Origin: an uncultured Eubacteriales bacterium | GTDB taxonomy: Bacteria > Acidobacteriota > Aminicenantia > Aminicenantales > Aminicenantaceae | Length of the DNA: 64,000 bases | NCBI GenBank assembly: GCA_964645765.1 | Contig: CAZYBE010000011.1 | Coordinates: forward strand, 7,897-71,896 | Reading direction: 5' to 3' | In this document: piece after piece, positions 44,329-64,000 of the stretch | Layout: the number at the start of each line of letters is the position of its first letter | Position numbering within the stretch: position 1 is the stretch's first letter | The notes under the pieces: generated by a model | Seen by the model: the letters and a program-made list of their open reading frames with translations, nothing else | Databases searched by the model: none | Told to the model about the DNA's origin: nothing | Made by a program: the position numbers and the translations under genes

Positions 44329-45258
44329 CTACTTTTTGCCCAACACGAACAGCAATCCAGGATGCGCGCGCAATTCCTGATTGACGCGCATGCCACGAAA
44401 TAGCAGCCTTACGTCCGGATTATCACTTTCACATGACTTCAGGAACGCCTTGTCGTCTCGGTTCAGGACAAACAGCTTCCTGTAAAACTCCTCGACCTGT
44501 TTCTTTATGTCTCCGAGCTCGACACGCGTTGCCTGTGCCTCCCTGAGAAACGGACCCAGAGACCGGACGAATGCCTTCTCGTCATACTTCTCAATGCTGC
44601 GCAACAGGCTATCGAGGCGAGGCTCTCTCTTCGCCAAGACAAGGTAGAACATCATGAGCTTTCTTAGCAGGACCTTTCTCATCTTCATCCTGGAAGCATG
44701 AAAAATGTCATGAATGTCGCGCGGGTAAAGCCGTTCCACCATCGCTTTTGTCTTCATCGCCGTGATCTCTTCAAGCGAGTAGGTCTTTACTTTGAAGACG
44801 GGGAGGTCGAAGACGTGACCGAAGCGCTTTGAAAGCGTGCCTGCGACTGGAACTCTTTCGAGAAAATTGATTTCCAGCTTCACGCTGTCCGCCGGGCCCG
44901 CGAGGCTCCGGTAGCGGAGGAGAAACCTTTCCATGATGTAGGAGCCCGGCTTCAGATCAAACCCGTAGTCCAACGATCCCGCAAGGCGCGTTATCTCTTC
45001 CCGCACATGCGGCCGGATCTCCAGCATTCTTTCCTTCTTGATTGCGCCGACGAAATTGAAGTCCAGGTCGATGGACAGCCTCGGCAGGTCGAGATAAACG
45101 AAATTCAGAGCCGTCCCGCCCTTGAGGGCCAGTGCTTTCGCAAGCACTTCATTTTCCTGGACCGCGGCCAGTAGTCTCGTGATGTGATAGGCCTTCTCAA
45201 GAAAAACGGGATTGAAACCCGTATCCCTCTGAAGCTTCTGCAACGCTTTCAGGTCCAT
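44329..45258 (-). CDS. abiEii: AbiEii-type nucleotidyltransferase toxin (type IV TA); start revised to 45258
   Basis: LEKAYH, ALKGGTALNFVYLDLPRLSIDLDF, VKLEINF, K..AMVERLYPRDIHD; ATG immediately after the AbiEi stop. Confidence 0.85.
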   Translation of the reverse strand: MDLKALQKLQRDTGFNPVFLEKAYHITRLLAAVQENEVLAKALALKGGTALNFVYLDLPRLSIDLDFNFVGAIKKERMLEIRPHVREEITRLAGSLDYGFDLKPGSYIMERFLLRYRSLAGPADSVKLEINFLERVPVAGTLSKRFGHVFDLPVFKVKTYSLEEITAMKTKAMVERLYPRDIHDIFHASRMKMRKVLLRKLMMFYLVLAKREPRLDSLLRSIEKYDEKAFVRSLGPFLREAQATRVELGDIKKQVEEFYRKLFVLNRDDKAFLKSCESDNPDVRLLFRGMRVNQELRAHPGLLFVLGKK

Positions 45259-45259
45259 T

Positions 45260-46108
45260 TCAAACGCCCTCCGTCGCCTTCTCCAGCCTCGGATCGACAA
45301 TGACCTTCCATTTGCCGACGAATTTCCCACCCTTCCCCTTTTCGAAATAGTACGTGCTTTGTGATAGTGAGGCCTGAAGCTCTTCAAGGAATGCGTCCGG
45401 CGTCTTGACCGGTTCCCTCAGCAGGTCGAAAACGTAGCCCGCGCGGTTGAGCAGGATGCGCTTTCCCGTCCTCTTGATGTAGCCGAGCAGCCTGTCCCAT
45501 TTCACTTCGCGCGCATCCATGAGGCACCTGACGATTTCCTCGTATCCGCCCGCGTACTGAGGCATACGCAGGACATCGACTATGGTCCTTTCCAGATCCG
45601 AGACCGCGACCTTCTCGTCCCTGTACTTGATTTGCTCGATGCCAAAGAATTCCTTCTCCCGGAGCCTGACGGGACGGATGACGCTTCCCTTATAGGTGAG
45701 GACTTTCGCCTGCTTCGTGGTCGTGACGTAGACTTGGGAGGCCGCCTGCTGCGCGAGGCCGTGGAGGGCCAGGGCCGTGTAATATGAGAGGAAATAAGGC
45801 CACGCAAGGTGCGCCGCCACAATGACCGGGTCCTCGGCATAGCTTCCCCTGTCGTGGACGATGTGCGCCGGGATCCGGACGTAGAGGTTTGCCTTCACTT
45901 TTCCCAGTGCGCCTTTCTGCTCCATTTTCCTCAGGACGCCGTAGGCTTGCAGCTTCGGGATTCTGAGAAGCTTCATCGCCTCCTCCGCTGTGACGATTTT
46001 CCTGTCCTCGGCTTCCAGGAGGAAGTAGAGCTTCTGTTCCAGGCCCGAAAGCTTCTTCAGGACGTACATTTTCTTAACTCTGTCTTTCATATTTATCCAT
46101 CCTGACAT
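45260..46108 (-). CDS. abiEi: AbiEi-type antitoxin / transcriptional regulator
   Basis: N-terminal wHTH, FLSYYTALALHGL, VSDLERTIVD..R.P.Y.GG.EE; upstream of AbiEii. Confidence 0.85.
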   Translation of the reverse strand: MSGWINMKDRVKKMYVLKKLSGLEQKLYFLLEAEDRKIVTAEEAMKLLRIPKLQAYGVLRKMEQKGALGKVKANLYVRIPAHIVHDRGSYAEDPVIVAAHLAWPYFLSYYTALALHGLAQQAASQVYVTTTKQAKVLTYKGSVIRPVRLREKEFFGIEQIKYRDEKVAVSDLERTIVDVLRMPQYAGGYEEIVRCLMDAREVKWDRLLGYIKRTGKRILLNRAGYVFDLLREPVKTPDAFLEELQASLSQSTYYFEKGKGGKFVGKWKVIVDPRLEKATEGV

Positions 46109-46477: not shown

Positions 46478-48401
46478 TTTTCTTTTTTACCAACAAGATA
46501 CCAAAAGGGACGATCTTGCATATTTTAACGCAGCGGCCATGATTGTGGCTAAACGCCCTTTCCCTGCCCTCGATAGCTTCCACAATAAAGTGATTTAAGC
46601 TCAGACAATACCTTTCAGGGACCAAACTCTTTCTAATTGCCATAAAGAAACTTGATCCCTCGGGTTGAGGAAGCCGAGCAGGAAGAAATATGAGTCTCTC
46701 CGGGAATGACTTCCATTCTGGTTTCGAGACCACCGCAGTTCCGTTTGATAAGCAGGACATGGAAATCTTTCCAGGGCTGGATAATGTTCTGTTCATCGAA
46801 CTCGTCGACCGCAGAACCAGAAATCGCGCAGGGATTCCGTCGTGGAAGAAGGAAAAAAGCATAAACAATATTGAGCTGCGATTTCAGCTTTTTATTTCGC
46901 GAGCCCGCATAACCGGGAAATCTTGCTCTTCCGCTTATTTTAAGTATAATTAAAGAAATTGCACGGAGAGGACAAAGTTTTGTCTATAATTAAAAAATAC
47001 ATCGAACGGCCGGAATACATTAAACGTATCACTCCTTTTGTTGACAAGCCCACCATCAAAATTCTCGTGGGACAACGTCGGGTCGGCAAGAGCTTCCTTC
47101 TTTACCAGATCATGGATGCGCTAAGGAAAAGGGGCATCCCCGAGAGTCGAATCGTTTACATCAACAAAGAGCTGCATGACTTTGAAGACATCAGAAACGA
47201 CCGCGATCTCATAGCCTATATAGACCGTCAGTGCAGGACAGGGAAGACGCTCCGTCATGTTTTCATCGATCAAGTCCAGGACATCGCGCATTTCGAGAGA
47301 GCTCTTAAATCGCTGATCGCTGCCGGTGGGACCGACCTCTATTGCACCGGGAGCGACGCCCGAATGCTTTCAGGAGAGCTGGCGACCGATCTCAATGGCC
47401 GCTATGTAGAAACAGTTATTCACGCCCTGTCTTATTTAGAGTTTCTTGATTTTCACCGATTAGAATCCTCTACAAAATCCCTCGAGGCCTACATACGGTT
47501 GGGCGGTCTTCCGTTCCTGATCCATCTCCCTCTTAAAGAATCGACAGCCTACGACTATCTGCGCAATATTTACGGCACAATCCTATTCAAGGATGTTATC
47601 CGCCGGCACCGCATCAGGAATCCGGCCTTTCTTGAGCGGCTCGTCCTCTTCCTTGCCGATAATACAGGCAACCTTGTCTCGGCCAAAAAAATCAGTGATT
47701 TTCTTAAGTCACAAAGGATGAAGATCTCCCCGAATCTTGTCCTGGACTATCTCGCCCACTTAGCTCAATCCTACTTTGTCCATCAAGTGCGCCGCTCCGA
47801 CGCGTATGGGAAAAAAATATTCGAGATCGGCGAAAAATACTATTTCGAGGACCTCGGGCTGCGACATGCGCTCGTAGGCTACCGCCAGGCAGACATCCAA
47901 AAAGTCATCGAGAACCTCGTTTTCATGCATATGAAAATCGCCGGATACGATGTAACCATTGGGAAGCTCAATGGGGGAGAGATCGACTTCATCTGCAGGA
48001 GACGTGATGAGAAGATCTATATTCAGACGGCATACCTCCTTACCGACCAGAAGACTAAGGACCGGGAATTTTGGCGCCTTCTGAATATAAAAGACGATTA
48101 TCCCAAATTCGTTATCTCTATGGACCCGATGGCCAGCGGTGATATCCTGGGTATCCAGCATCTCTCCCTGATCAACTTTTTACAAAAAAAATGGTGAAGG
48201 AGAAATAACTGTCCTGTGGCTAAAATTGTGGCTAAGCCCTGGATAAAAGAGGCAGAACCAGGTTAAGAGAGGATAAAACAGGAAAAAATAGGCTGATTCA
48301 AGCGTATTGATAATAAAAACAATAAGATAGAAAAGACTTTTCAAGATTTTGTGCACTCTACACACGGTAGAAGTCACAGGTCCAAGTCCTGTATCGCCCA
48401 C
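46478..48401. mobile_element. Mini genomic island 2 at tRNA-Val, no integrase
   Basis: Lies between att copies 1 and 2; single cargo gene. Confidence 0.75.
46980..48197 (+). CDS. AAA+ ATPase (AAA_14-like) with a C-terminal DUF4143/PD-(D/E)XK-like domain
   Basis: Walker A GQRRVGKS; Walker B VFIDQVQ; TGS; KYYFEDLGLR; ENLVF; EIDF...YIQ. Start uncertain (TTG 46980 after ggagag). Confidence 0.85.
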   Translation: MSIIKKYIERPEYIKRITPFVDKPTIKILVGQRRVGKSFLLYQIMDALRKRGIPESRIVYINKELHDFEDIRNDRDLIAYIDRQCRTGKTLRHVFIDQVQDIAHFERALKSLIAAGGTDLYCTGSDARMLSGELATDLNGRYVETVIHALSYLEFLDFHRLESSTKSLEAYIRLGGLPFLIHLPLKESTAYDYLRNIYGTILFKDVIRRHRIRNPAFLERLVLFLADNTGNLVSAKKISDFLKSQRMKISPNLVLDYLAHLAQSYFVHQVRRSDAYGKKIFEIGEKYYFEDLGLRHALVGYRQADIQKVIENLVFMHMKIAGYDVTIGKLNGGEIDFICRRRDEKIYIQTAYLLTDQKTKDREFWRLLNIKDDYPKFVISMDPMASGDILGIQHLSLINFLQKKW

Positions 48402-49802: not shown

Positions 49803-50546
49803 TTGTCATCAGCTAATAGATCGGAGGATCGAATAATTATAGCGATATTCGGCGACGTACACGGGAACATCGAAGCACTTCGAACAGCTTATCGAGCCGT
49901 GGAAATTAAGGCCGACAAGATATTTCATCTTGGCGACCTAGGGGGTTATGCTCCTTTTGTGAATGAAGTGGTAGACTTTTTGATTGAGCATAGCATAAAT
50001 GGAGTCCAGGGCAACTATGATGACGCTGTGGCCAACGATAGGGAACACTGTGGCTGTAAATATGAAGATCCCGTTCAAGAACAGATGACAGCTCTCTCGT
50101 TCGAATGGACGAAGAAGCACACAACGCAGAAGACGAAGGAGTACTTGAAGGGCCTCCCGCCGGTGCTTCATTTCTTTACTCAAGGCAAGAAGATCTTACT
50201 GTTTCATGCGGCACCGCATAAGAACAATCTTTACTGGTACGAAGGTCGCCCAGAGAAGTTTTTCACGGAGATGGCCGAGAAGACCGACTCCGATATCCTC
50301 GTCTACGGCCATACGCACAAGCCGTATCGAAAGGACTTTGGAGGGAGGGTCTTTATTAATGCCGGAAGCGTTGGGAAACCGAAGGACGGAGACCCGAGGG
50401 CATGCGTGGCTTTGATCGAGGTCACTCCCGATACGGTAAAGACAGATTTTGTAAGGATCGAGTACGAGGTCGAAAAAACCGTCGCGGCCATCTTGGAACA
50501 GGGTTTACCTGCATATTTCGCTGAAAAATTAAGACAAGGGAGATAG
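49803..50546 (+). CDS. Calcineurin-like metallophosphoesterase (YfcE-like); start uncertain
   Basis: GDVHGN, LGDLGGY, QGNYD, FH, GHTHKP, NAGSVGKPKDGDPRA. Confidence 0.85.
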   Translation: MSSANRSEDRIIIAIFGDVHGNIEALRTAYRAVEIKADKIFHLGDLGGYAPFVNEVVDFLIEHSINGVQGNYDDAVANDREHCGCKYEDPVQEQMTALSFEWTKKHTTQKTKEYLKGLPPVLHFFTQGKKILLFHAAPHKNNLYWYEGRPEKFFTEMAEKTDSDILVYGHTHKPYRKDFGGRVFINAGSVGKPKDGDPRACVALIEVTPDTVKTDFVRIEYEVEKTVAAILEQGLPAYFAEKLRQGR

Positions 50547-50602
50547 CCCTGAAAAATAAATACTGTCTTTACGTCGGGAATGATTCATGAGGGAAAGGTA
50601 CC

Positions 50603-51643
50603 ATGGCGGACGCTAAGCTGCATAAGACCGATGAGGCACTCAAAGCGGCGCAAAAGATATTGGCAGCCGAGGGAAAAGACCTGCGGGCCTCGCTTTACCG
50701 GGATATTTTTCTCAATGCGCTGAAGTGCCAACGGGATGAACTTGATATTTTGGACCTGAAGATCATCAACCGCGCCCTGGCCGAGTTCCGGCATGCCGCA
50801 TGCGTATTCAAACCGTACAGACCGCTCCGCAAGGTTTCCATCTTCGGTTCGGCTCGCGAACCCAAGGGAAGTCCCTACTACAAGCTGGCGGTAAGATTCG
50901 CTCGTCGTCTGGTCGAGAAAGGCTTTATGGTCATCACCGGAGCGGCATCAGGCATTATGAAAGCCGGGATCGAGGGAGCCGGACTTCGGAACAGCTTTGG
51001 AGTGAATATCCTCCTGCCCTTTGAGAGAGGGCTGGCTAAAATCATCCGAGACGATCCGAAAGTCGTCAGGTTTAAATACTTTTTCACGCGCAAAATATTT
51101 TTTGTGATGGAAGCCGATGCGGTCACCCTATTCCCCGGCGGCTTTGGCACGCACGATGAAGGATTTGAGGTGTTAACGTTGCTTCAAACTGGGAAAGCGC
51201 CGCCCATGCCCATTATCCTTATGGAACTTCCTGGAGAAGATTACTGGGAAACTTGGGATCGATTTATAAGACGGCAGTTACTGGCCCGGGGTTTCATATC
51301 TGCGGAGGACTTGAGTTTCTATAAAATTGCACGGTATCCTGAAGAAGCTATAGACTGGATCACCTCTTATTATTCAACGTATCACTCCCTGCGCCAGGTC
51401 AGAGACAAGCTTGTGATCAGGTTGGAAAAGGAACTCAAAGACGCTCATGTCAGAAGATTAAACGATATGTTCCAGGACCTCATTGAATCGGGGAAAATTT
51501 TCAAAACGCGGGCGCTTCCCGAAGAGAAAGACGAACCAAATCTCAGGTCAAAACCCAGGATTGCTTTCGCTTATAACCGAAAAAGCGCGGGGCGCCTTAA
51601 TAAAATGATTTTGACGATCAATAGAATGGGCCGCTTGGCATAA
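50603..51643 (+). CDS. LOG-family Rossmann-fold nucleotide-binding protein with extensions
   Basis: VSIFGSAR, ITGAASGIM, FFTRKIFF, FPGGFGTHDEGFEVLTL.QTGK. Confidence 0.85.
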   Translation: MADAKLHKTDEALKAAQKILAAEGKDLRASLYRDIFLNALKCQRDELDILDLKIINRALAEFRHAACVFKPYRPLRKVSIFGSAREPKGSPYYKLAVRFARRLVEKGFMVITGAASGIMKAGIEGAGLRNSFGVNILLPFERGLAKIIRDDPKVVRFKYFFTRKIFFVMEADAVTLFPGGFGTHDEGFEVLTLLQTGKAPPMPIILMELPGEDYWETWDRFIRRQLLARGFISAEDLSFYKIARYPEEAIDWITSYYSTYHSLRQVRDKLVIRLEKELKDAHVRRLNDMFQDLIESGKIFKTRALPEEKDEPNLRSKPRIAFAYNRKSAGRLNKMILTINRMGRLA

Positions 51644-51679: not shown

Positions 51680-53062
<1,383 letters not shown>

Positions 53063-53241: not shown

Positions 53242-54528
53242 ATGAACAAAGAATCCTTTAATCCCTTTGTCCTGGCTCAATTCCAATTCGACAGGACTGC
53301 GGATTGGCTCAGCCTGGACTTACCAACCAGAGAGCTGTTGCGTGTTCCGATGAAAGAATATCAATTCCTCATTCCCCTTCGCTTGGATGACGGGAGTGTC
53401 AAGGTCTTCCGCGGCTTCCGCGTGGTCCATAACGATGCCCGAGGAGCCGGCAAGGGAGGTATTCGTTTCCATCCTCATCAGACCATTGACACCATCCGCG
53501 CCCTGGCAATGTGGATGACCTGGAAATGCGCCCTGATGGACCTTCCCTTGGGTGGCAGCAGCGGAGGGGTAGCCTGTGATCCTCACTACTTAAGCCTTCG
53601 AGAGCAGGAGCATCTCTGCCGGGGCTGGGTTAGGCAGCTGGCCAGGGACCTTGGTCCGCAGGTCGATGTTCCCGCGCCTGAGCTCATGACCAGCGCGCAG
53701 CACATGCTCTGGATGCTGGACGAGTACGAGGCTCTCCGCGGGGAGAAAACCCCGGGATTTATTACCGGCAAGCCTGTAGGGATGGGAGGATCTCTCGGCA
53801 GAGTGGAAGCTGCGGGTTTTGGCCTCGTCTTTTCCCTGCGCGAGGCCCTGAAAGAAATGAAGATGAAGCCGGACGGCACGACTGCCAGTGTCCAGGGGTT
53901 CGGCAATGTGGCTCAGCATGCTGTCCGACTCTTCGAACAGGTTGGCGGCAAAGTGACCTGCGTTTCTTGCTGGGATCAGAAAGACGCAACGCCCTATGCT
54001 TATAAAAAAGAATCCGGCATCGAGCTCGAAGCCCTGGCTGGCATCACGGACCGCTTCGGCGGGATCGATAAAGAGAGTGCCCGGAAGATGGGGTATGAAG
54101 TCCTTCCCGGAGAGGCCTGGCTCGCTCAGGATGTGGACATCTTGATTCCGGCGGCTGTCGAGAATCAAATCACAGATAAGAATGTGCAAACAATCCGCCC
54201 GCGCGTCAGAATCATCGCCGAGGGAGCCAACGGCCCCACCACCTTCGAAGCCGACAGAGTCATCGCTGAGCGGGGTATCCTCGTCATTCCTGATATTCTC
54301 GCCAACGCCGGTGGTGTGACCTGCAGCTATTTCGAGCAGGTCCAGAGCAACATGAACTATTATTGGGAGAAAGACGAGGTTCTCGGCAAGCTGGATGTCA
54401 AAATAACCTCTGCCTTCAACGCTGTCCTCGAATTCGCCAAAAAAAAGAAGCTTTCCATGCGGGAGGCGGCTTTTTCTATCGCCGTGGCCCGGGTGGCCCA
54501 AGCCTGCAAGGACCGAGGTTGGGTTTAA
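53242..54528 (+). CDS. Glu/Leu/Phe/Val dehydrogenase homolog with altered catalytic residues
   Basis: GKGGIRFHP, MTWKCA, QGFGNVA and NAGGV present, but GGSSGG replaces GGxKGG and PAPE replaces PAPD/PAGD. Confidence 0.9.
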   Translation: MNKESFNPFVLAQFQFDRTADWLSLDLPTRELLRVPMKEYQFLIPLRLDDGSVKVFRGFRVVHNDARGAGKGGIRFHPHQTIDTIRALAMWMTWKCALMDLPLGGSSGGVACDPHYLSLREQEHLCRGWVRQLARDLGPQVDVPAPELMTSAQHMLWMLDEYEALRGEKTPGFITGKPVGMGGSLGRVEAAGFGLVFSLREALKEMKMKPDGTTASVQGFGNVAQHAVRLFEQVGGKVTCVSCWDQKDATPYAYKKESGIELEALAGITDRFGGIDKESARKMGYEVLPGEAWLAQDVDILIPAAVENQITDKNVQTIRPRVRIIAEGANGPTTFEADRVIAERGILVIPDILANAGGVTCSYFEQVQSNMNYYWEKDEVLGKLDVKITSAFNAVLEFAKKKKLSMREAAFSIAVARVAQACKDRGWV

Positions 54529-54530
54529 GT

Positions 54531-56270
54531 TTGCATTATCAACAGTCCATCTCGCCCTTCGACCGCCATTTCTTTACGGGGAAAGAAAAGTTCACGGCTA
54601 TCGGTCGCGGTTCCTTGGGGGGAAAAGCCCATGGCCTGGCCCTGATGAAGGACATTCTCGAAAGCCGCCTGGCAGCATCCTACCGGCCTGATATCGACAT
54701 CACCACACCGACCCTGACAGTCATCACCACAGAATTCTTCGACCTTTTCATGAAGCAAAACAACCTCTACGACGTGGCTTTATCCGGCCTCCGCGATGAC
54801 CTCATCGCCACTGCTTTTCAGAAGGCCGAGCTTCCTGCCCAGCTCGTTGGCGACCTGCGCGCCCTTATCGCCCAGGTTCACTCGCCGCTGGCCATCCGGT
54901 CCTCCAGCATGCTCGAGGACGCCATGTTCGAGCCGTTCGCCAGCGTCTATTCCACAAAAATGATCCCAAACAACGAGCTGGATACTGACACCCGCTTCAG
55001 GAAGCTGGTGGAGGCGGTCAAGTTTGTCTACGCTTCGACTTTCTTGAGGGACGCGAAAAACTACATTCAAGCGACAAAGCACAAGATGATAGACGAAAAG
55101 ATGGCAGTCATCATCCAAGAAATCGTCGGCGTGCGGCACGGCCAGCGCTTCTATCCTCATATCTCGGGTGTAGCCCGTTCCTATAATTTTTATCCGCTCG
55201 GCCATACCAAGCCCGCCGACGGAGTGATCGATCTTGCTCTCGGCTTGGGCAAAATGATCGTGGATGACGGCGTCGCCTGGTCTTATTCGCCGGCCTATCC
55301 CAAGGCAAATCCGCCCTATAACACGCTTGCCGAACTCTTAGGCCAGAGCCAGAACGAATTCTGGGCTGTCAACATGGGGCCTCCTCCCGAGTTCAATCCC
55401 CTCAAAGAAACCGAATATATGGCGAAGTTCAGCCTGGAGGATGCCGAGATGGATGGAATCCTCCGCTTCATCGCCTCCACCTACAGGGCTCAGGACGACA
55501 AAATCGTCTACGGAATCTCGGAGAAGGGGCCGAGGATTATCGATTTCGCGTCAATCCTGAAATTCGACCTCATTCCACTCAACAAGATGCTTAAAGAACT
55601 GCTTAAAATCTGCGAGGACACACTGGAGAGAATGGTTGAGGTTGAATTTGCCTTGACTCTCGATGAACACCGTGGCGCTCCTGCCCGTTTTGGATTTCTG
55701 CAGGTCAGACCGATGGTTGTATCAGAGACAAAAGTCGACCTCTCTTTGGCGGAGCTGAGCGGAGAGAAGGTGCTCGTGGCTTCCGATTCGGCCCTGGGAA
55801 ATGGAGTCCTCGAAAATATCCGCGACATCGTTTATGCCAAGCCGGAGAAATTCAGCATTCATCATTCGGAGGCCATCGCCTCAGAGCTCGAACACTTGAA
55901 CTGTCAGCTGGTGGCTTCAAGCAGCCCTTACCTGCTCGTCGGGTTCGGCCGCTGGGGGACATCCGACCCACAGGCCGGAATTCCTGTCAATTTCGGCCAG
56001 ATCTGCGGAGCCAAAGTCATCGTCGAGTCAGCACTTCCTGAGATGAGCTCGATGCTCAGCCAGGGTTCGCATTTTTTCCACAATATCACCAGCTTCAAAG
56101 TCTTCTATTTCTCAGTAAGCTCATGGGATAAATACAAAATCGATTGGGACTGGTTGAACAAGCAGGAAGTCGTCCAGGAAACAGAATTCGTCCGACAGGT
56201 CAGGGTTCTGTCTCCCTTGAAAATAAAAGTCGACGGGAGAACCAGTCGGGGGGTGATCTATCATGAGTAA
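54531..56270 (+). CDS. PEP-synthase-N-like ATP-grasp protein 1, no His domain; start revised to TTG 54531
   Basis: GGKAHGL, AIRSSSMLED, MAVIIQEIVG, VEFA, LQVRP; ends GSHFFHNI; no TSHAAI phospho-His motif. Confidence 0.85.
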   Translation: MHYQQSISPFDRHFFTGKEKFTAIGRGSLGGKAHGLALMKDILESRLAASYRPDIDITTPTLTVITTEFFDLFMKQNNLYDVALSGLRDDLIATAFQKAELPAQLVGDLRALIAQVHSPLAIRSSSMLEDAMFEPFASVYSTKMIPNNELDTDTRFRKLVEAVKFVYASTFLRDAKNYIQATKHKMIDEKMAVIIQEIVGVRHGQRFYPHISGVARSYNFYPLGHTKPADGVIDLALGLGKMIVDDGVAWSYSPAYPKANPPYNTLAELLGQSQNEFWAVNMGPPPEFNPLKETEYMAKFSLEDAEMDGILRFIASTYRAQDDKIVYGISEKGPRIIDFASILKFDLIPLNKMLKELLKICEDTLERMVEVEFALTLDEHRGAPARFGFLQVRPMVVSETKVDLSLAELSGEKVLVASDSALGNGVLENIRDIVYAKPEKFSIHHSEAIASELEHLNCQLVASSSPYLLVGFGRWGTSDPQAGIPVNFGQICGAKVIVESALPEMSSMLSQGSHFFHNITSFKVFYFSVSSWDKYKIDWDWLNKQEVVQETEFVRQVRVLSPLKIKVDGRTSRGVIYHE

Positions 56271-59200
56271 AGAGCAAAAAAATATAGATACTTTAGTCTG
56301 GTTCCTGTCCGAACGGGCCAAGGAACTGAATTGCCTCTACAAAATCGAAGGGCTCCTCAACAAACCTGATGCCAGCCTTACGGATATCTGCAAAGGGGTC
56401 GTCGAGGCTATTCCGCCGGGCTGGCAGTATCCAGATGTCTGCGTCGCCAAAATCACCATAGAGGGGCACACCTGCCAATCCCCAAACTTCAAAGAGACGC
56501 CCTGGGTCCAGTTTGCCGACATCAAAGTCCAGGATAAGAAAATCGGGAGGTTGAGCGTTTACTACACAAGCGAGATGCCCCATGCCGACGACGGTCCCTT
56601 TTTGAAAGAGGAAACAAAACTTCTGGGCACGATCGTCGAGCGGTTAGGGCATTACATCCTCTACTCCCGGATGAAACAAGCATTCCAAGAATACCAGACT
56701 GCCCGGGAAGAAATCTCGGCCCACCGGACAGAAGAATGGCGCGTGGCTTTGAATTTCTTGCGTCAGACCAACAAGAACCTTTTTCTGAATATCTCCCGCC
56801 AAATGCTCAATTTCCTCAGTTGGAGCGGCGTTCAGGAAGCAGAGAAAATCCTCCTAAAATCTTTAGCCGGCCAAAAAAGCCGCCCCGAGAGTTATTCTGA
56901 AGACGACAATCGTCCCTATCGAATGACCCTGCCCGCCTTCAGCGAAAAACTCAGCGATGAAACGTTCAAGCTGGCGGCCAAGCATCTCACCAACGAGCAA
57001 ATTCTCTCCAACATCCAGAAGTGGATTCAGGAGGACCGGCTGAGCTTTCTGGTCCAGGTGACAAACAGGAATCTCTCCCTTGCTCAGGTTGTTGACGCTA
57101 TCCGGCGCTATCATCATATTGCGGCGGAAGGCATCGAACTCCCTCCTGCCAGCAAGCGGGGCGTCCTGGTCTCCCTGATCCGGCGCTTCCTCTCGGACCA
57201 GCCGGAATTCATAAACACGGCTATCGAGCACACTGAGGTCGATAACTTTTACGAAATTCTGGATCATATCGTTTTTCCGGCTGCAAGCCAGGGAAAACTC
57301 GGCGGGAAAAGCAGCGGGTTATTCCTTGCCAAGCATATCCTGAAGAAATCGGCCGATTCCCTGAGCCACTTTAGCGAGATCAAGGTTCCCAAGACGTGGT
57401 ACATCACCTCGGATGGACTCTTGAGCTTTCTCTCCTACAACAACCTCAACGAGGCTGTCGAACAAAAATACAAGGACATCAACCAGGTCCGGCTGGAATA
57501 TCCCCACATCGTCCACACCTTCAAAAATTCCCGCTTCTCCACGGACATCATCCAGGGTCTGTCTATGGTCCTGGATGACTTCAAGGATCAGCCGATCATC
57601 GTCCGCAGCTCCAGCCTGCTCGAAGACCGGCCAGGCTCATCATTTTCAGGAAAATACAAGAGTCTGTTCCTGGCCAACCAAGGAAGCAAGCAGGAGCGCC
57701 TGGATGCCCTCAAGGATGCCATCGCTGAAGTCTATGCCTCGACCTACGGACCCGACCCGATCGGCTACCGCTCGGAGAGGGGCTTGCTTGACCTTAACGA
57801 GGAAATGGGCATCATGATTCAAGAAGTCGTAGGCACGCGGGTCGGAGACTATTTTCTGCCTTCGTTTGCAGGTGTCGCCTTCAGCCGGAACGACTCTCGC
57901 TGGTCCCCAAGGATCAAGCGTGAAGATGGCCTGCTGCGGCTGGTCCCAGGATTGGGAACGAGAGCTGTGGATAGGACGAGCGACGACTATCCTGTTTTGA
58001 TCGCTCCAGGACAGGTCGGCCTCCGGGTTAATGTCACGGCCGACGAGGTTGTCCGTTATGCACCTAAGAAGGTTGATGTCATCAACTTAAAAACGAATAG
58101 CTTCGAGACTATAAGAGTCACAGACTTGTTCAAGACCTCCGGCAGTGGAATTCCTGCCATAGATAAAATCGTCTCCATCTATGACGGTCAAAGTCTTCGG
58201 AAGCCTTTGGGAAATGCTATCGATTTCGAGAAGGATGACCTCGTGGTCACCTTTGAAGGGTTGATAAACAATTCGTCCTTCATTCCTCAGCTCCGCCAGG
58301 TGATGCGGCTCCTGGAAGAAAGGCTCAATTCGCCGGTGGACATCGAATTCGCATCCGATGGGAAAAATTTTTATCTCCTCCAATGCCGGCCTCAAAGCTA
58401 CATGGAGGGAGGCGGGCCTGCCTTTATCCCCAAGGACTTATCCAAGGACAAAGTCCTATTCCTGGCCAACCGTTTCATCTCCAACGGCAGCGTGCCCGAT
58501 GTCAGCTATATCGTCTATGTCGACCCTCAAAGCTACAATGACCTGCCCAGCCAGACGTCTCTTCTGGCTGTAGGACGCGCAGTGGGAAGGCTGAACAAGC
58601 TCTTGCCCAGGCGCCGCTTCATTCTCATCGGGCCAGGACGCTGGGGAAGCCGGGGAGACATCAAGCTTGGGGTGAAAGTCTCCTACTCGGACATTTCGAA
58701 CACAGCTGCACTGGTAGAAATTGCCCGGCAATTGGGAAATTATCTTCCAGATCTTTCCTTCGGCACGCACTTCTTCCAGGACCTTGTGGAAGCAGAGATC
58801 CGTTATCTGCCTCTTTATCCCGACGAAAAGGGCACTGTTTTCCAGGAGAACTTTTTCAGGGAGTCACCGAATATCCTTGCTCATGTCCTGCCTGATTTTG
58901 CCGACCTTGCGGATACGGTCAAAGTGATTGATGTTCCTGCGACGACTGGAGGATTAGTGCTCCGCATCCTGATGAATGCCGACCTCGATGAAGCCGTCGG
59001 CATCCTGGTCAACCCCCAAGCCGAACCTCCCTCTCCAGTTGTCCCGAAAGAAGCGGAGAAGAAGAAGCCAGAAAACTATTGGGCCTGGCGGCTCGAAATG
59101 GCAGAACACATCGCTTCCCAGCTTGACCCTCAGCGCTTTGGAGTCAAAGCTATGTACATTATCGGCAGCACCAAGAATGCCACAGCCGGGCCGCAGAGCG

Positions 59201-59457
59201 ACATCGACCTCTTAATTCATTTTCAAGGGACAAAAAACCAGCGCCGGGAGTTGCTGATTTGGCTGGAAGGCTGGAGTATTTGCCTGGACGAGCTGAATTT
59301 CCAGAGGATAGGGTACAAAAGCGGGGGGCTGCTCGATGTCCACATTGTCACCGACGAGGATGTCGCCAACAAGGCAGGCTATGCGATAAAAATAGGCGCC
59401 GCCACAGATGCCGCAAGGCCTCTCCGCCTCAAAGAAAAAACCGGCGACTCAAGCTGA
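56263..59457 (+). CDS. GAF-like + PEP-synthase-N-like ATP-grasp + nucleotidyltransferase fusion
   Basis: N-terminal ERAKELNCLY...GPFLKEE; GGKSSG, VRSSSLLED, DIEFA, LLQCRP; C-terminal YIIGST...SDIDLL...LDVH. Confidence 0.85.
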   Translation: MSKEQKNIDTLVWFLSERAKELNCLYKIEGLLNKPDASLTDICKGVVEAIPPGWQYPDVCVAKITIEGHTCQSPNFKETPWVQFADIKVQDKKIGRLSVYYTSEMPHADDGPFLKEETKLLGTIVERLGHYILYSRMKQAFQEYQTAREEISAHRTEEWRVALNFLRQTNKNLFLNISRQMLNFLSWSGVQEAEKILLKSLAGQKSRPESYSEDDNRPYRMTLPAFSEKLSDETFKLAAKHLTNEQILSNIQKWIQEDRLSFLVQVTNRNLSLAQVVDAIRRYHHIAAEGIELPPASKRGVLVSLIRRFLSDQPEFINTAIEHTEVDNFYEILDHIVFPAASQGKLGGKSSGLFLAKHILKKSADSLSHFSEIKVPKTWYITSDGLLSFLSYNNLNEAVEQKYKDINQVRLEYPHIVHTFKNSRFSTDIIQGLSMVLDDFKDQPIIVRSSSLLEDRPGSSFSGKYKSLFLANQGSKQERLDALKDAIAEVYASTYGPDPIGYRSERGLLDLNEEMGIMIQEVVGTRVGDYFLPSFAGVAFSRNDSRWSPRIKREDGLLRLVPGLGTRAVDRTSDDYPVLIAPGQVGLRVNVTADEVVRYAPKKVDVINLKTNSFETIRVTDLFKTSGSGIPAIDKIVSIYDGQSLRKPLGNAIDFEKDDLVVTFEGLINNSSFIPQLRQVMRLLEERLNSPVDIEFASDGKNFYLLQCRPQSYMEGGGPAFIPKDLSKDKVLFLANRFISNGSVPDVSYIVYVDPQSYNDLPSQTSLLAVGRAVGRLNKLLPRRRFILIGPGRWGSRGDIKLGVKVSYSDISNTAALVEIARQLGNYLPDLSFGTHFFQDLVEAEIRYLPLYPDEKGTVFQENFFRESPNILAHVLPDFADLADTVKVIDVPATTGGLVLRILMNADLDEAVGILVNPQAEPPSPVVPKEAEKKKPENYWAWRLEMAEHIASQLDPQRFGVKAMYIIGSTKNATAGPQSDIDLLIHFQGTKNQRRELLIWLEGWSICLDELNFQRIGYKSGGLLDVHIVTDEDVANKAGYAIKIGAATDAARPLRLKEKTGDSS

Positions 59458-59465
59458 GCGCGCTC

Positions 59466-60329
59466 TCAAATCAGCTCGCGGCTGGCCGCGTCCAAATTTT
59501 CAAGGTCAAAGCGAATCAGAGCGAGCTCCGGACCGTCGTGAGCAGCGGAAAAACATATTGTGCGGCCGATGCGGTCTCGCCAGGAATGAGACAGCCTTGC
59601 CGACTCATGGACATGCCCATGAAACGTTAAGAGCGGCTGGCGGGCTTCGATGAAGCGCCGGACAGCTATGCTGCCGAGGTGACGGTCCAAAGGGACGTAA
59701 TCAATCATTTTTCCTCCAAGAGAGGATAGGTCAAGCTTCGTCTGGTAGGGAGGTGTATGGAAGAGAAAGATCGCCTTGGCCAGGTCTTCTTTCTCCGTCA
59801 GCCGCTCGAGGTCATCCTTAATCGTCGCATATTTTTTTTCCTGCTCAGAAACGGAAACAGTTCGAAACCCCTCTTCCGGTGAGACGGCGCCGGCGTCGAG
59901 ATAGCGGGAGACATCGTAGCGCTCCCAATCTTTCAGCCGAAAAGGAGTTGGAGGGACATAGGCATACCCATAAACAATAAAGTCCTTGAATGTCACCTTA
60001 CAATTATGAATATACTCCCATACGCCCAGTGAAGCCGCATCCAGAACTGCTGCCTCTTCCATCCGGCTGTCGTCGTTGCCCAAGATTATAAAAACCCTGG
60101 GATAGGAGCTTCCAAGCTCCTGGCGCAGCTCTAGAAGATTTTTCACCAAGAAATCGTTGATAAAATCCTGGTGCAAGAAATCAAAGGATTCGTGGACGTA
60201 CCAGGTCAGGGGCAAGGCATCGCCGCCGACAAACACGGCCTCGGGCTTTTCTCGAGAGATGGCGGAAAAAAGCTTCTGGTAACGGGCGATTCTGCCGTGG
60301 AGGTCAGAGACAAAAAAAATCAAGGACAT
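59466..60329 (-). CDS. Metallophosphoesterase (Icc-like)
   Basis: VSDLHG, VGGD, ILGNDD, FHTPP, HGHVHES; ATG at 60329. Confidence 0.85.
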   Translation of the reverse strand: MSLIFFVSDLHGRIARYQKLFSAISREKPEAVFVGGDALPLTWYVHESFDFLHQDFINDFLVKNLLELRQELGSSYPRVFIILGNDDSRMEEAAVLDAASLGVWEYIHNCKVTFKDFIVYGYAYVPPTPFRLKDWERYDVSRYLDAGAVSPEEGFRTVSVSEQEKKYATIKDDLERLTEKEDLAKAIFLFHTPPYQTKLDLSSLGGKMIDYVPLDRHLGSIAVRRFIEARQPLLTFHGHVHESARLSHSWRDRIGRTICFSAAHDGPELALIRFDLENLDAASRELI

Positions 60330-60406
60330 AAGGAAATCATAGCGAAAAAAATCCAAGGAGACAACTTTGGCGGATTCATCTGAGGCGAGACCTTGGCCGG
60401 AGGAAG

Positions 60407-61138
60407 TTATGTATTTTCCTCGGCATTGAATTTATAGCCAACTCCTCTTACAGTCTGGATGTATCTCCTGGCCTTCCCGAGCTTTTTCCGGAGTCCGGTA
60501 ATATGGTAGTCGACGACGCGCTCGGTGATCGGGTAGCCGTCCTCTCGCACGTGGTCGAGGATTCGGGAGCGGGTAAAGACATAATTGGGTTTGCTCGCCA
60601 TCAAGACAAGGATATCGAATTCCGTTTTGGAGAGGCCGATCTTTCTGCCGCTGAGTAGGACCTCGTAGGCTTCCCGATTGATCACCAAATCGTCGATTTC
60701 CAGAATTGTCTTTTCTTTTTCGGCTGAATCAAATTTCCTGCGCAACTGGGCGTGGATGCGGGCCAGGAGGATTTCCGGCTCAAAGGGCTTGGTAATGTAA
60801 TCGTCGGCGTAGTCTTTAAGGCCGAGCACAATATCTTCAACCTGCTTTTTGGCTGTCACTATGATGACCAGGATGTCAGCGGTCGAGGGGTCCTTCTTGA
60901 GGATACTCGAAACCTTATAGCCGTCTATTCCCGGCAGGATCAGGTCCAACAGAATAAGGTCCGGCCTCTCTCTCCTTGCCAGTTCTAATGCCTCTTCTCC
61001 TGTCTGGGCGCAAAGAACTTGATATCCCTCTTTCCAAAGGATAAAAGAGAGGCTTTTCTGAAGGTTGATATCATCCTCAACGCACAAAATCTTGGCTTTG
61101 GGTCGAGTGTCTCCGGGTGATGATTTCATGCTGCACAC
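60407..61138 (-). CDS. Orphan OmpR/PhoB-family response regulator
   Basis: VEDD, LILLDLILPGIDG, ADDYITKPF, ERVVDYHITGLRKKLG, TVRGVGYKF. Confidence 0.9.
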   Translation of the reverse strand: MCSMKSSPGDTRPKAKILCVEDDINLQKSLSFILWKEGYQVLCAQTGEEALELARRERPDLILLDLILPGIDGYKVSSILKKDPSTADILVIIVTAKKQVEDIVLGLKDYADDYITKPFEPEILLARIHAQLRRKFDSAEKEKTILEIDDLVINREAYEVLLSGRKIGLSKTEFDILVLMASKPNYVFTRSRILDHVREDGYPITERVVDYHITGLRKKLGKARRYIQTVRGVGYKFNAEENT

Positions 61139-61392: not shown

Positions 61393-62838
61393 TCATCTCT
61401 TCGACTCTCTTTGTTCGTAAGCCTCGATCCATTTTTCGACGATTTGAGCCAGAGTCTGGCACAGCTGAGGTCCGCTGCCGTGGATAGGACGCAACTCTTC
61501 GGCAAGCTCTGGATAGCCTTTGCAGTCCAGCCAGGACGAGACGATATCATTGTCGGAGTACGGCTGAATTTTCTCGGTGCTCAGGGTCTGAAGAGTGGCG
61601 TAGAGATCATGCAGGTTGAATATTTTCTCTCCATTGATAATCAAAGGCGTCCTCTCCATTCGAGCGATTTCGACCTGAAAATGCCTCTTCAACTGAGTAA
61701 TGAGTTTCTGGCCCCGGCCCCTTTTGGGACGCAATCGATCGCCGAGCTCCGGGTAGCTGTGCATGTAGAGCCAGGTCGAGAACTTATCTTTCTCCCCATA
61801 GCTCTCCAGTATCTCCCGAAGCTTCAGTCCATGCTCGGTGTCCTTCTCGGCTTCCAAGAGGATGTTGCAAATGTCGTAGATATCTTTAGCGCGGTGCATT
61901 TCACGTCCATCCTTATCATGGATGAGAAAATCTCCCAGCCCTGTAAGGTTGAGAATATAATCCTTGAGCTTCTGCAGACTGTCTTGGTCGCCTTTGGGCA
62001 GGATGAAACCAAGGTCCTTGAGTTCAAAAGCTTCTTTTGCTTTGGAAGCAATGATCACAGGGATACGAGGATAATAAATGTTGACAAGGCGGATGAGGTC
62101 ACGGCCTGCCCTGCTCTGAAGGTCATCGCCTCTGGGAAAAAAGATATCGGCGATGAGACAGACAACATCGTCTCCGTGCCCCTGCGAGAGATAGTCCTTT
62201 TTTCTGACCTGAGACTCATCTTCAACCCCAAAGAGGAACTCGAGACTCTCCTCATAAGTGCGGGTAATCATGATGTCCGCCCGCTGACCGATGATCGTGT
62301 AGAGGACTGGGAGGAATTGAGAGAACCAGCGCGGCTCGTCATCGACCACATGGAAAATAAACCGCCGCACTCTTGAATATTTCTTGATATTGAGCAAATC
62401 TTCCGCCGCCCTGACGACCGATGGAATAATGCTCCTGGGAGCAAATTCATTCTTGTTGACCGCAAAGACAAGGTCGGCATTGGCTGTGTAGGGATACTTT
62501 TGTCTTGCAGCCTGAGGAGGCGAGCATTGAATGAAGGCTTGAGAGGAAAGAAGGACAAGGACCGCGTTACTGTTCTGCTTGCGGACTTTTCCGGCGTCAA
62601 GAATCGCCAACCCCGTGTCATCGAACAGGAATACAGAGGCCTCATCGGACGCGGCCATCATCACCGACTGAGGGTCAGAGAGAATTTCTGTCCCCAGCCA
62701 AGGCATGTTCTCTTCCAAGAGTTCTGCGGACTCCCGGAGCCGGGCGTCGGCGGCAAAAAGGACCGCCCGTTTTATCTTGACGGGGTTGATGACTCGGGGA
62801 ATGAACGGATATTCTCGAGGACGGCTTGAGCTAGTCAT
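61393..62838 (-). CDS. Stand-alone protein with tandem receiver-like domains and two helical repeats
   Basis: FHVVDDEP, RTYEES, CLIADIFFP...AG.DL, IPVIIAS; repeats FSTWLYMHSYPELGDRLRP and VSSWLDCKGYPELAEELRP. Confidence 0.7.
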   Translation of the reverse strand: MTSSSRPREYPFIPRVINPVKIKRAVLFAADARLRESAELLEENMPWLGTEILSDPQSVMMAASDEASVFLFDDTGLAILDAGKVRKQNSNAVLVLLSSQAFIQCSPPQAARQKYPYTANADLVFAVNKNEFAPRSIIPSVVRAAEDLLNIKKYSRVRRFIFHVVDDEPRWFSQFLPVLYTIIGQRADIMITRTYEESLEFLFGVEDESQVRKKDYLSQGHGDDVVCLIADIFFPRGDDLQSRAGRDLIRLVNIYYPRIPVIIASKAKEAFELKDLGFILPKGDQDSLQKLKDYILNLTGLGDFLIHDKDGREMHRAKDIYDICNILLEAEKDTEHGLKLREILESYGEKDKFSTWLYMHSYPELGDRLRPKRGRGQKLITQLKRHFQVEIARMERTPLIINGEKIFNLHDLYATLQTLSTEKIQPYSDNDIVSSWLDCKGYPELAEELRPIHGSGPQLCQTLAQIVEKWIEAYEQRESKR

Positions 62839-64000
62839 TCTCTAATACAACCTGGCAGCGCTGGTTGAGAGAATCGGCGTAAACCGTGACCGGGCTGGGA
62901 AAAGTCAAGACAGAAGGTATAGAATCAGGCTGGGGACAAGAAAAGAACCAAGGGTCAAAGGTGTCTTGCATGGGCATGACATAGCCATAAACGATGTTGT
63001 TGCATATCAGGTTGGTCAAGAAATGCGTGCCCTGGGTTCCATACATTCTCGTCTGCAGCCTTTTTTGGTCTTCATCAAAGCCTCCCTGGATCATATAGAG
63101 AAAATGGCTGCCGTAAACACCTCCTGTCAGGCTCTCTTCCTCCGCTAAAGGCTCTGACCGGCCAGCGATGTCCACCCCGTATTCGAAAATCGCCGCCGCC
63201 TGGTCAACGGACCTGTAGTCAATAGAAATGCCCCAATCCGGGTTCCTGCTGCCGAGACGACCTGGAACGACCATGATATATTTCTCTCCACGCCTCTCCA
63301 TCTCCTCGTTGACCTGGGCCATCTTTTTCCTGACCGCTGCCAACATTTCTTTTGTATAAACAAAAGGGGAGACAACGACCGCAAACTTGATGTTCTTTTT
63401 GACCCCATGACCCTGGGCATTATTGATCGAAAGGTAGGTATGCCGACAATGCTCGGGGACCTGGATGGAGTCAAACCTGAGCTCGGGAAGCTGGGTGAGT
63501 TGGACGATATGAAAGGTTCCTTCTCTTTTATCTTTCCTGGAAAAGTCAAGGTTGAAGACGAACTCGATCTGAAAATGGGAAGAGACGCGGGAGGCGATCG
63601 TCTCCATAATTTCGACAAGAGCAGTCTTGAAGTCGAAGTGGTTGTTCTGGACGAGCTCTTCTATGGTGATCAGGTCGTTCTTGACTCCCAAAAGCCTGAT
63701 TTTATGAAAATTGGCAAACTGCACGTGGAGCTTCCTCATCGTCTCCAGCTCTTCTCCCTTGAGCTCCCTATTCCTCGTCAGGTCCAGAGCGTAAAAATAC
63801 TGCTGGCCTCTTCCAATCCTCAGCAACTGAAGAGGGATAGGGTTGCGTATAGTAGCCATGGAAATGACGGGAAAATCGTCCAAGACTGTGGCATAGCCGT
63901 GCCCGAATGCGATCCGCGCAAACCCTTCCCTGGGGTCCTGGTTTTTGAGGGCATGGGGAAAAAAGGAATTGGCAACTCCAGAAATGTAGGGATAATAAAC
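62831..64000 (-). CDS. PEP-synthase-N-like ATP-grasp paralog 3, 5'-truncated by the window edge and degenerate
   Basis: Frame stays open to 64000 (VYYPYISGVANS...GFARIAFGHG); VPGRLGSR and GTHFL match the other two paralogs; LQxRP replaced by VQLTQ. Confidence 0.75.
   Translation of the reverse strand, partial: VYYPYISGVANSFFPHALKNQDPREGFARIAFGHGYATVLDDFPVISMATIRNPIPLQLLRIGRGQQYFYALDLTRNRELKGEELETMRKLHVQFANFHKIRLLGVKNDLITIEELVQNNHFDFKTALVEIMETIASRVSSHFQIEFVFNLDFSRKDKREGTFHIVQLTQLPELRFDSIQVPEHCRHTYLSINNAQGHGVKKNIKFAVVVSPFVYTKEMLAAVRKKMAQVNEEMERRGEKYIMVVPGRLGSRNPDWGISIDYRSVDQAAAIFEYGVDIAGRSEPLAEEESLTGGVYGSHFLYMIQGGFDEDQKRLQTRMYGTQGTHFLTNLICNNIVYGYVMPMQDTFDPWFFSCPQPDSIPSVLTFPSPVTVYADSLNQRCQVVLEND

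Follow-up and report, generated by a model that had tools for sequence, protein, structure and literature searches.

Phosphoenolpyruvate (PEP) synthase (PpsA, EC 2.7.9.2) and pyruvate, phosphate dikinase (PPDK, EC 2.7.9.1) bind ATP in an ATP-grasp domain of the PPDK_N type. To our knowledge, all characterised enzymes with this domain transfer the phosphoryl group from ATP to a histidine, and all of them except VadK act on small molecules. Glutamate dehydrogenase (GDH) connects carbon with nitrogen metabolism. Aminicenantes, many Acidobacteriota, Ignavibacteriota and related uncultured groups have been proposed to live by fermenting amino acids, and GDH is the key enzyme of this lifestyle. We know of no dedicated post-translational control of bacterial GDH comparable to GlnE and GlnD, and a literature search identified none. 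Rifampin phosphotransferase (RPH) is a PPDK_N enzyme with a small-molecule substrate (PMC4844700). VadK (Rv1127c) from Mycobacterium tuberculosis, a PPDK-derived histidine autokinase, autophosphorylates on its catalytic histidine, interacts with metabolic enzymes and is tied to the methylcitrate cycle (bioRxiv 10.1101/2025.10.30.685616). A further PPDK_N protein of 1064 amino acids (aa) is encoded, from an ATG start on the plus strand, in an uncultured Aminicenantaceae bacterium (GTDB; contig CAZYBE010000011.1, GCA_964645765.1). The whole 64,000-nt stretch of this contig that was analysed is called the window, the 1064-aa product the long protein. Its gene is part of a GDH operon. The long protein is proposed to be a signal-gated, two-headed ATP-dependent enzyme that works with GDH and most likely modifies GDH or a partner covalently, with a probability of about 40%.

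The first-pass annotation, made from the sequence alone, had placed the gene at 56263-59457, and the listing of open reading frames (ORFs) confirmed this extent. In a word-indexed search, 7341 of 5.8 billion proteins matched the long protein at E<=1e-3. The best 120 of them are full-length (~1060 aa) with identities of 68-95%; where a name was given, it was mostly 'Candidatus Aminicenantes/Aminicenantales'. With an exhaustive HMMER search, 1092 of 1.84 billion cluster representatives matched at E<=1e-30, and full-length relatives reached down to ~35% identity. Thousands of matches, with full-length homologues at high identity, mark a real gene. Scanning one genome per GTDB species for the motifs of the C1 domain described below located the family in at least 592 genomes, next to thousands of metagenomic proteins. 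It represents an uncharacterised enzyme present in many bacterial phyla. Labels on the matches are generic ('PEP/pyruvate-binding domain-containing protein', 'nucleotidyltransferase domain-containing protein') or name a dikinase ('pyruvate,water dikinase' at JGI, 'pyruvate, phosphate dikinase' at NCBI). Neither this architecture nor a GDH-PPDK_N operon was covered by any paper found in a full-text literature search; a mention of PPDK_N in the ProFaNA paper concerns E. coli ppsA, and the other matches were to other proteins, e.g. starch dikinases. The catalytic folds of the family are already known, while the C1 domain, which has no detectable relative, and the presumed target are new.

The ATP-grasp domain was recognised by PF01326 (PPDK_N) with an E-value of 2.7e-58 and 198 bits against a cut-off of 27. 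Its catalytic residues are intact and conserved, namely GGK349, R448-SS, E454-D455, E695 and Q707-x-R709, which make up the Lys/Arg/Glu/Gln/Arg set of dikinase ATP-grasp domains. Segments matching PEP synthase (2ols), VRSS...ED...SF.G and DIEF...LLQCRP, are invariant or near-invariant in the family. An intact PPDK-type nucleotide-binding domain, as described in the first-pass annotation, is therefore present. The swivel domain with its phospho-histidine (PF00391, GGxTSH) gave no Pfam match in the long protein even at E<=10. The PEP/pyruvate TIM barrel (PF02896) gave none either, and the C-terminus is formed by a nucleotidyltransferase (NTase) instead. A separate ORF for a swivel domain, searched by regular expression and a small hidden Markov model, was found neither in the window nor in the related loci fetched up to then; a distant locus fetched later (L097) contains a neighbouring protein with PPDK_N and PF00391. 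NCBIfam equivalogs for PEP synthase and PPDK match the ATP-grasp only and reach about one tenth of their cut-offs (NF005057, 60.8 bits versus 598; TIGR01418, 55.7 versus 739.75). Weak matches to RPH and PigC in NCBIfam are likewise confined to the ATP-grasp.

The view that the protein has no pyruvate-binding barrel and cannot be a PEP synthase by itself was borne out, as both the canonical His domain and the barrel are absent. For the same reason, the label 'pyruvate, water dikinase' applied by some sources is, judged from the domain content, wrong. Such labels are routine, skew metabolic reconstructions and imply gluconeogenesis where there may be none. The additional view that a phospho-His swivel is lacking stands for canonical PF00391, but a conserved His-bearing domain occupies the same position. 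The long protein thus resembles PEP synthase and PPDK in a homologous ATP-grasp, with the ATP- and Mg-binding residues kept, and in a conserved His-bearing domain directly behind it. It differs in the absence of swivel and barrel, in the added GAF-like, helical and NTase modules, and in C1, which is about twice the size of a swivel domain and unrelated to it by sequence profile or Foldseek. RPH, phenylphosphate synthase and PigC share the plan of ATP-grasp, carrier and variable specificity module, but they keep the canonical swivel, act on small molecules and have no GAF or NTase module. VadK is likewise a PPDK_N enzyme without a pyruvate barrel and is an earlier example of a dikinase that became a regulator. 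Its link is to the methylcitrate cycle instead of GDH, its carrier-position domain (by the description in the preprint) differs from that of the long protein, and no homology beyond PPDK_N was found.

C1, a domain of ~190 aa, is inserted between ATP-grasp and NTase, where PEP synthase has its phospho-His domain, and is conserved at the level of the catalytic domains. An AlphaFold 2 model of aa 725-925 showed an alpha/beta domain with a predicted local distance difference test (pLDDT) of 94 and a predicted template modelling (TM) score of 0.91. In 40 relatives of 26-55% identity, the motifs G790-P-G-R-W-G-S796 and S832-F-G-T-H836-F-F-x-D are invariant or near-invariant; H836 is kept in at least 90% of the sequences. 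His836 is placed by the model at the N-terminus of helix 836-843, which leads into the next strand. Foldseek against the PDB gave nothing at E<=0.001 (best E 0.14, TM 0.33), and the weak matches were to nucleotide binders with a Rossmann-like fold. A C1 profile had no match in Pfam and no significant match to PDB sequences, the best being the P-loop of MsbA at E 0.11. C1 is hence a confidently folded new domain in the phospho-histidine slot of every characterised PPDK-type enzyme.

A divergent swivel was considered for C1. Pfam gave none at E<=10, no PEP synthase, PPDK or Enzyme I occurred in the Foldseek top 50, and hhalign against the swivels of E. coli PpsA, PtsI and PtsP, a thin three-sequence template, gave a probability of 0.3%. 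Homology was rejected as undetectable. The local pattern of C1, i.e. strand, loop, T-H, helix and strand, recalls GGxTSH-AAIxAR of swivel domains, and a functional analogy may still apply. Among 69 representatives, sequences without the C1 motifs also tend to lack catalytic residues of the ATP-grasp (odds ratio 23, Fisher p 7e-4, phylogeny ignored), while the NTase motifs persist in sequences in which both are degenerate. This suggests that ATP-grasp and C1 constitute one functional unit and the NTase a second, separable head. A His-mediated, dikinase-type mechanism is the preferred reading of the chemistry, since a near-invariant histidine at a helix N-terminus occupies the swivel position. 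His836 would be the obvious candidate for the phospho-acceptor owing to the domain order, the helix N-cap, the adjacent glycine-rich loop and the joint degeneration with the ATP-grasp. The family offers a clean test case for the rebuilding of a dikinase mechanism. A C1-profile search of the 5.8-billion-protein set returned mostly short fragments with only PF01326 and/or PF01909. Several proteins of ~200-350 aa with C1 alone or C1 and NTase were observed on contigs of 100-680 kb (e.g. P0388, P0328, P0301, P0361). Such proteins may truly exist on their own or may come from genes split by frameshifts in long-read assemblies.

The C-terminal NTase was identified by NTP_transf_2 (PF01909, aa 957-1001; 27.7-29.5 bits versus a cut-off of 21), and the NTP_transf_2/Polbeta matches together span aa 957-1028. 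The GS...DID motif at 59164-59211 comprises G968-S969 and D980-I-D982, with D1025 as third carboxylate. The pattern hG[GS]-x(9-13)-Dh[DE]h plus a third acidic residue of minimal NTases is present, and G968-S969, D980-x-D982 and D1025 are kept even in relatives of ~35% identity. A profile of this region matched best to minimal NTases in the PDB (1wot; MntA, 5yep; kanamycin nucleotidyltransferase, KNTase). The Pol-beta-type NTase with GS...DID...D, read from the sequence at first pass, was confirmed in this way. MntA-type enzymes AMPylate a protein partner. The minimal NTases (MNT/MntA of HEPN-MNT systems, KNTase) share the GS-x10-DxD...D core and are the best sequence matches. The NTase of the long protein differs from them in forming the C-terminus of a 1064-aa enzyme, encoded in a GDH operon of housekeeping type without a HEPN partner or toxin-antitoxin context. 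GlnE and GlnD similarly join Pol-beta NTase catalysis to nitrogen sensing and have a target in ammonium assimilation. Their specific domains, tandem NTase domains for GlnE and NTase, HD and ACT domains for GlnD, were not found in the Pfam scan of the long protein, which returned only PPDK_N and generic NTase families. Its NTase is of the minimal type (~125 aa), the sensor is GAF-like instead of ACT, an ATP-grasp head is added, and the presumed substrate is GDH or glutamate synthase (GOGAT), not glutamine synthetase or PII. An analogy to GlnD/GlnE, as drawn at first pass, applies to the logic and not to the domain families. If the proposal is true, the system would be the GDH counterpart of GlnE/GlnD for glutamine synthetase.

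The N-terminal 340 residues were not recognised by Pfam, and a profile search of PDB sequences yielded noise only. An AlphaFold 2 model of aa 1-345, built on a 53-sequence alignment, had a pLDDT of 88 overall and ~90-97 over aa 1-150. The latter segment folds into helices 3-32 and 39-49, four strands between 60 and 101 and a long helix 115-150. The top Foldseek matches in the PDB were almost all GAF domains or GAF-containing sensors (3p01; Nlh1 of A. aeolicus, 4g3k; NifA, 8jrc; PDE5/6; phytochromes; PtsP, 3ci6; CodY), with probabilities of 0.96-1.0, target-normalised TM scores of 0.5-0.6 and E-values of 0.007-0.03, none below 0.001. The model thus has a GAF fold, though only four strands were modelled, and 'GAF-like' is a fair description on the basis of these matches. 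The relationship is visible only in the fold search, as sequence profiles gave noise. Pfam GAF had no match above threshold in the window protein, and a faint signal was detected in 4 of 17 family members (best E 0.089). The GAF-like sensor of the first-pass annotation accordingly holds at the level of the fold and only faintly at that of the sequence. The domain parsing with AlphaFold added the helical domain (aa 158-333) and C1 (aa 725-915) to its three-part description, all parts of which (GAF-like, ATP-grasp, NTase) are present. The helical domain is kept in the wider family. Core proteins of ~770 aa begin there, and the representatives P0145, P0146 and P0150 align from residue ~157 of the long protein. 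PtsP (Enzyme I-Ntr) also combines an N-terminal GAF domain with a His-phosphotransfer enzyme of the PEP-utilising superfamily in nitrogen metabolism, and its GAF domain is among the structural matches. It takes its phosphoryl group from PEP via Enzyme I domains, has no ATP-grasp, relays to NPr and EIIA-Ntr, and has neither NTase nor C1. In total, the protein has a sensor-type N-terminus and two catalytic heads with conserved active sites.

The operon on the plus strand comprises a GDH paralogue, a short paralogue with PPDK_N and C1, and the gene of the long protein, in this order. The short paralogue starts with TTG either at 54531, 3 nt past the GDH stop, or at 54519, overlapping this stop. 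The ATG of the long gene at 56263 overlaps the stop of the short paralogue by 8 nt. The short paralogue has neither GAF-like module nor NTase and shares 27% identity with the long protein over ATP-grasp and C1 (E 1e-32). Scans for promoters and terminators gave no signal above shuffled expectation.

Gene context was counted in the best 80 loci, all from metagenome-assembled genomes. They are labelled Aminicenantes, Acidobacteriota (Terriglobia, Thermoanaerobaculia, Holophagae), Ignavibacteriota, Zixibacteria, Planctomycetota, Krumholzibacteria, Eisenbacteria, Calditrichota, Fermentibacteria, Myxococcota and others, more than ten phyla altogether. Upstream flank of 3.4 kb or more was available for 61 loci. 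In 56 of them, the long gene is immediately preceded by a GDH gene on the same strand, and in two more a GDH is close by. The short paralogue is placed between both in 47 of these 61. A metallophosphoesterase gene follows just downstream in 34 of the 63 loci with enough flank there. Unsupervised clustering of the neighbouring ORFs found only GDH, PPDK_N-C1 paralogues and Metallophos to recur. Natural fusions of the short and the long protein exist (P0123, P0126 and P0127, ~1640 aa; locus L082), and the N-terminus of P0123 is 42% identical to the short paralogue of the window over the full length of the latter.

More distant relatives occur in a similar setting. P0136 (43% identity, no NTase) abuts a 428-aa GDH. 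The neighbours of P0155 (35% identity) include two GDHs, three further PPDK_N proteins and Metallophos, and Metallophos also follows the distant relative P0165. P0144 (36% identity), in which ATP-grasp and C1 are degenerate and the NTase is intact, lies directly behind a glutamate synthase cluster (NuoE-like, NuoF/GltD-like, Fer4, Glu_synthase) and not behind GDH (L090, 1498-11168; L091). The NTase-less core members P0146 and P0190 sit on short contigs. The context shared by near and distant relatives is the glutamate/2-oxoglutarate node, and the link between the long protein, GDH and the short paralogue is tight and ancient. The initial guess of GDH or its paralogue as partner is strongly backed by the gene order in many phyla, the overlapping stops and starts, and the distant relatives behind GDH or GOGAT. 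Locus L097 (822-18697) harbors two GDHs, four PPDK_N proteins, Metallophos and a GAPDH gene. One of its PPDK_N proteins (1376 aa) has a canonical PEP-utilizers swivel (GGITSHAAV); its long protein has Ser in place of His836, and a neighbouring 780-aa core protein keeps GPGRWGS/GTHFF.

The GDH paralogue of the window reads GGSSGG instead of GGGKGG and has thus lost the catalytic lysine. The lysine is replaced (S/N/Y/A/G/M) in the window and in about a dozen of the loci. Nearly all of these also hold a canonical GdhA-type gene, and most other operons have a GDH with the lysine. The loss almost only where a second, canonical GDH is present suggests that the operon GDH of this lineage is a pseudo-enzyme or a regulatory subunit. 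That the operon GDH is always a pseudo-enzyme was ruled out, as most orthologues keep the catalytic lysine. The term pseudo-GDH, used in the first-pass annotation, therefore fits this window but not most orthologous operons, and the system is tied to GDH in general.

In the proposed mechanism, a small-molecule signal of nitrogen or carbon status would bind to the GAF-like module. The ATP-grasp would move a phosphoryl group from ATP to His836 of C1, the substitute for the swivel domain, and this group would be handed on to a target protein. The NTase head would put a nucleoside monophosphate (NMP) on a hydroxyl group of the same protein or a partner. Stripping of the mark would be the task of the convergent metallophosphoesterase, a candidate eraser, and the short paralogue would probably be a subunit of the same complex. 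The long protein would then probably control a central enzyme of nitrogen metabolism. Translational coupling in the window, by overlapping stops and starts, and the fusions of short and long proteins argue for this proposal. A regulated effector also fits the PPDK_N-C1 core, which carries interchangeable sensor-type modules at the N-terminus (GAF-like, REC-like, KaiC-like). In P0190, P0200, P0262 and P0269 (~850 aa), the N-terminus resembles, as judged by eye, a KaiC/RecA-type domain but reads 'GDNVVWQV' at the expected Walker A position; it would be a further sensor-type module on this core.

Several findings weigh against covalent modification of GDH. C1 has no relation to the canonical phospho-His swivel detectable by Foldseek or hhalign. 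As its weak structural neighbours are Rossmann-like nucleotide binders, it could be a ligand-binding domain rather than a phospho-carrier. P0148 and P0155 lack His836, yet their ATP-grasp is intact. Either head is absent or degenerate in some GDH- or GOGAT-linked relatives, so the two chemistries need not share one target. The downstream Metallophos gene is limited to the 34 of 63 loci given above. Gene order points to a functional link, yet regulation of GDH and a common metabolic pathway would leave the same pattern. The most far-reaching version combines two claims. In a large PPDK branch, the swivel would have been replaced by C1 as a new kind of phosphohistidine carrier or phosphate-handling domain. 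GDH, short paralogue, long protein and phosphoesterase would constitute a previously undescribed reversible covalent-modification system (phosphorylation and/or NMPylation), by which more than ten phyla, mostly uncultured, would control GDH and, in one clade, glutamate synthase. Taken as a whole, this version is tentative and rather doubtful.

A metabolic role was considered, in which PPDK_N-C1 is a small-molecule dikinase or phosphotransferase at the glutamate/2-oxoglutarate node, similar to RPH, phenylphosphate synthase or PigC. C1 would bind the substrate and/or serve as carrier, with the NTase forming an NMP ester to activate the product or a co-substrate. GDH and glutamate synthase, the neighbours, share glutamate and 2-oxoglutarate, and the weak structural neighbours of C1 bind nucleotides or small ligands. 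Minimal NTases include the small-molecule modifiers KNTase and ANT, and small molecules are the rule among characterised PPDK_N enzymes, VadK excepted. However, no other biosynthetic or catabolic genes are conserved nearby, only GDH, the paralogues and the phosphoesterase. The exchange of GAF-like, REC-like and KaiC-like N-termini is typical of regulators, and operons with a Lys-less pseudo-GDH are maintained, which fits a protein partner better than a pathway. A metabolic enzyme is thus unlikely.

Regulation without group transfer was weighed as well. The long protein would bind GDH allosterically as a regulator or energy-charge sensor, with nucleotide binding or hydrolysis at the ATP-grasp and C1 and ligand binding at the GAF-like module acting as conformational switches only. 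Thermus and mycobacteria provide known cases of GDHs that are hetero-oligomeric or regulated by proteins, and the pseudo-GDH of the window suggests regulatory hetero-oligomers. Conserved adjacency and translational coupling fit a stoichiometric complex, and lineages with degenerate ATP-grasp and C1 keep the gene beside enzymes of the glutamate node. The vast majority of sequences strictly conserve the catalytic residues of both heads, which argues for catalysis instead, and the frequently co-located phosphoesterase fits a reversible covalent mark. A purely non-covalent role appears improbable.

A phosphorelay kinase would pass the phosphoryl group from the C1 histidine to a receiver (REC)-like segment, to homologous fused segments or to an OmpR-type regulator, and would control transcription of gdh and other genes. 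A 481-aa protein near the operon contains such a segment, which keeps DD...D...S...K. Elsewhere, PPDK_N-C1 proteins of ~1000 aa encoded beside a GdhA-type gene carry a homologous segment at the N-terminus (L035, L046, L057, L071, L076, L078 and p959 in L097). An OmpR-type regulator occurs in the cluster here and in the closest Aminicenantes-type loci, L004 and L005, and VadK has been described as a PPDK-derived histidine kinase. The assignment as REC is weak (hhalign probability 50%, E 1.7e-4). GDH is found in nearly all loci, the regulator and the 481-aa protein only in a minority. The fused proteins carry the REC-like part at the N-terminus, which is the layout of a regulated output and not of an acceptor downstream of C1. 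A phosphorelay is therefore rated as very unlikely. A PEP synthase or pyruvate, water dikinase with its missing parts supplied in trans, despite the JGI and NCBI labels, the intact PPDK_N domain and the swivel-bearing neighbour in L097, is effectively refuted at the sequence level by the missing PF00391 and PF02896, the ~10-fold shortfall in equivalog scores, the lack of a swivel ORF in the window and the related loci searched, and neighbours that are GDH and not gluconeogenic genes.

Table. Coordinates of the features discussed, by window position (aa numbers refer to the long protein unless stated as a length).
Feature	Position	Strand	Basis
Canonical NADP-type GdhA, 453 aa, divergent	51680..53041	-	NCBIfam PRK09414, GGGKGG intact
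GDH paralogue, 428 aa, first gene of the operon	53242..54528	+	Pfam/NCBIfam, motif alignment
Short paralogue, ~579-583 aa, PPDK_N and C1 (GFGRWGT, GSHFF)	54531..56270	+	ORF, Pfam, similarity
Long protein, whole gene: GAF-like, helical, PPDK_N ATP-grasp, C1, minimal NTase	56263..59457	+	ORF and full-length homologues
GAF-like sensor module, aa 1-150	56263..56712	+	AlphaFold 2 model and Foldseek
All-helical domain, aa 158-333	56734..57261	+	Secondary structure of AlphaFold 2 model
PPDK_N-type ATP-grasp, aa 345-713	57295..58401	+	Pfam PF01326, alignment to PEP synthase 2ols, conservation
C1, previously undescribed alpha/beta domain, aa 725-915	58435..59007	+	AlphaFold 2 model; no Foldseek/Pfam/PDB match
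Gly-rich loop GPGRWGS, aa 790-796, directly after beta-strand	58630..58650	+	Translation, conservation, model
SFGTHFFQD motif; His836 codon 58768-58770	58756..58782	+	Translation, conservation
Minimal Pol-beta-type NTase, aa 936-1064	59068..59454	+	Pfam, PDB profile search, motif conservation
Metallophosphoesterase, 296 aa, convergent, ends 9 nt past the long-gene stop	59466..60356	-	Pfam Metallophos
OmpR-type response regulator	60407..61138	-	Pfam
481-aa protein with REC-like segment (its aa 161-264)	61393..62838	-	hhalign versus REC; no Pfam match
Third PPDK_N-C1 paralogue, frame open to window end	62831..64000	-	Similarity to the other two paralogues

The divergent GdhA scored 751 bits with PRK09414 against a cut-off of 536. 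The third PPDK_N-C1 paralogue has orthologues of 555 aa in L001 and L004. Its LQxRP motif reads VQLTQ, with the arginine lost.

Just upstream of gdhA, a Metallophos_2 phosphoesterase (247 aa) and a LOG/SLOG protein (346 aa, PF03641) are encoded at 49803-51643 (+). They are probably outside the conserved module, as neither was found in related loci. An AbiEi antitoxin/AbiEii NTase toxin pair (type IV toxin-antitoxin) and an AAA_14/DUF4143 ATPase are located at 44329-46108 (-) and 46959-48197 (+), and this region separates the GDH cluster from a two-component array. The array at 16568-43792 (-) consists of five tandem triplets of paralogous genes. Each triplet comprises a TPR+HisKA+HATPase_c kinase of ~710 aa, an OmpR-type regulator of ~228 aa and a TPR+PD40/WD40-like propeller protein of ~700-730 aa, e.g. 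a kinase at 19479-21605, a regulator at 18777-19457 and a propeller at 16568-18670. The regulators of the triplets match the OmpR-type regulator of the GDH cluster (60407-61138) at E ~1e-35 to 1e-41.

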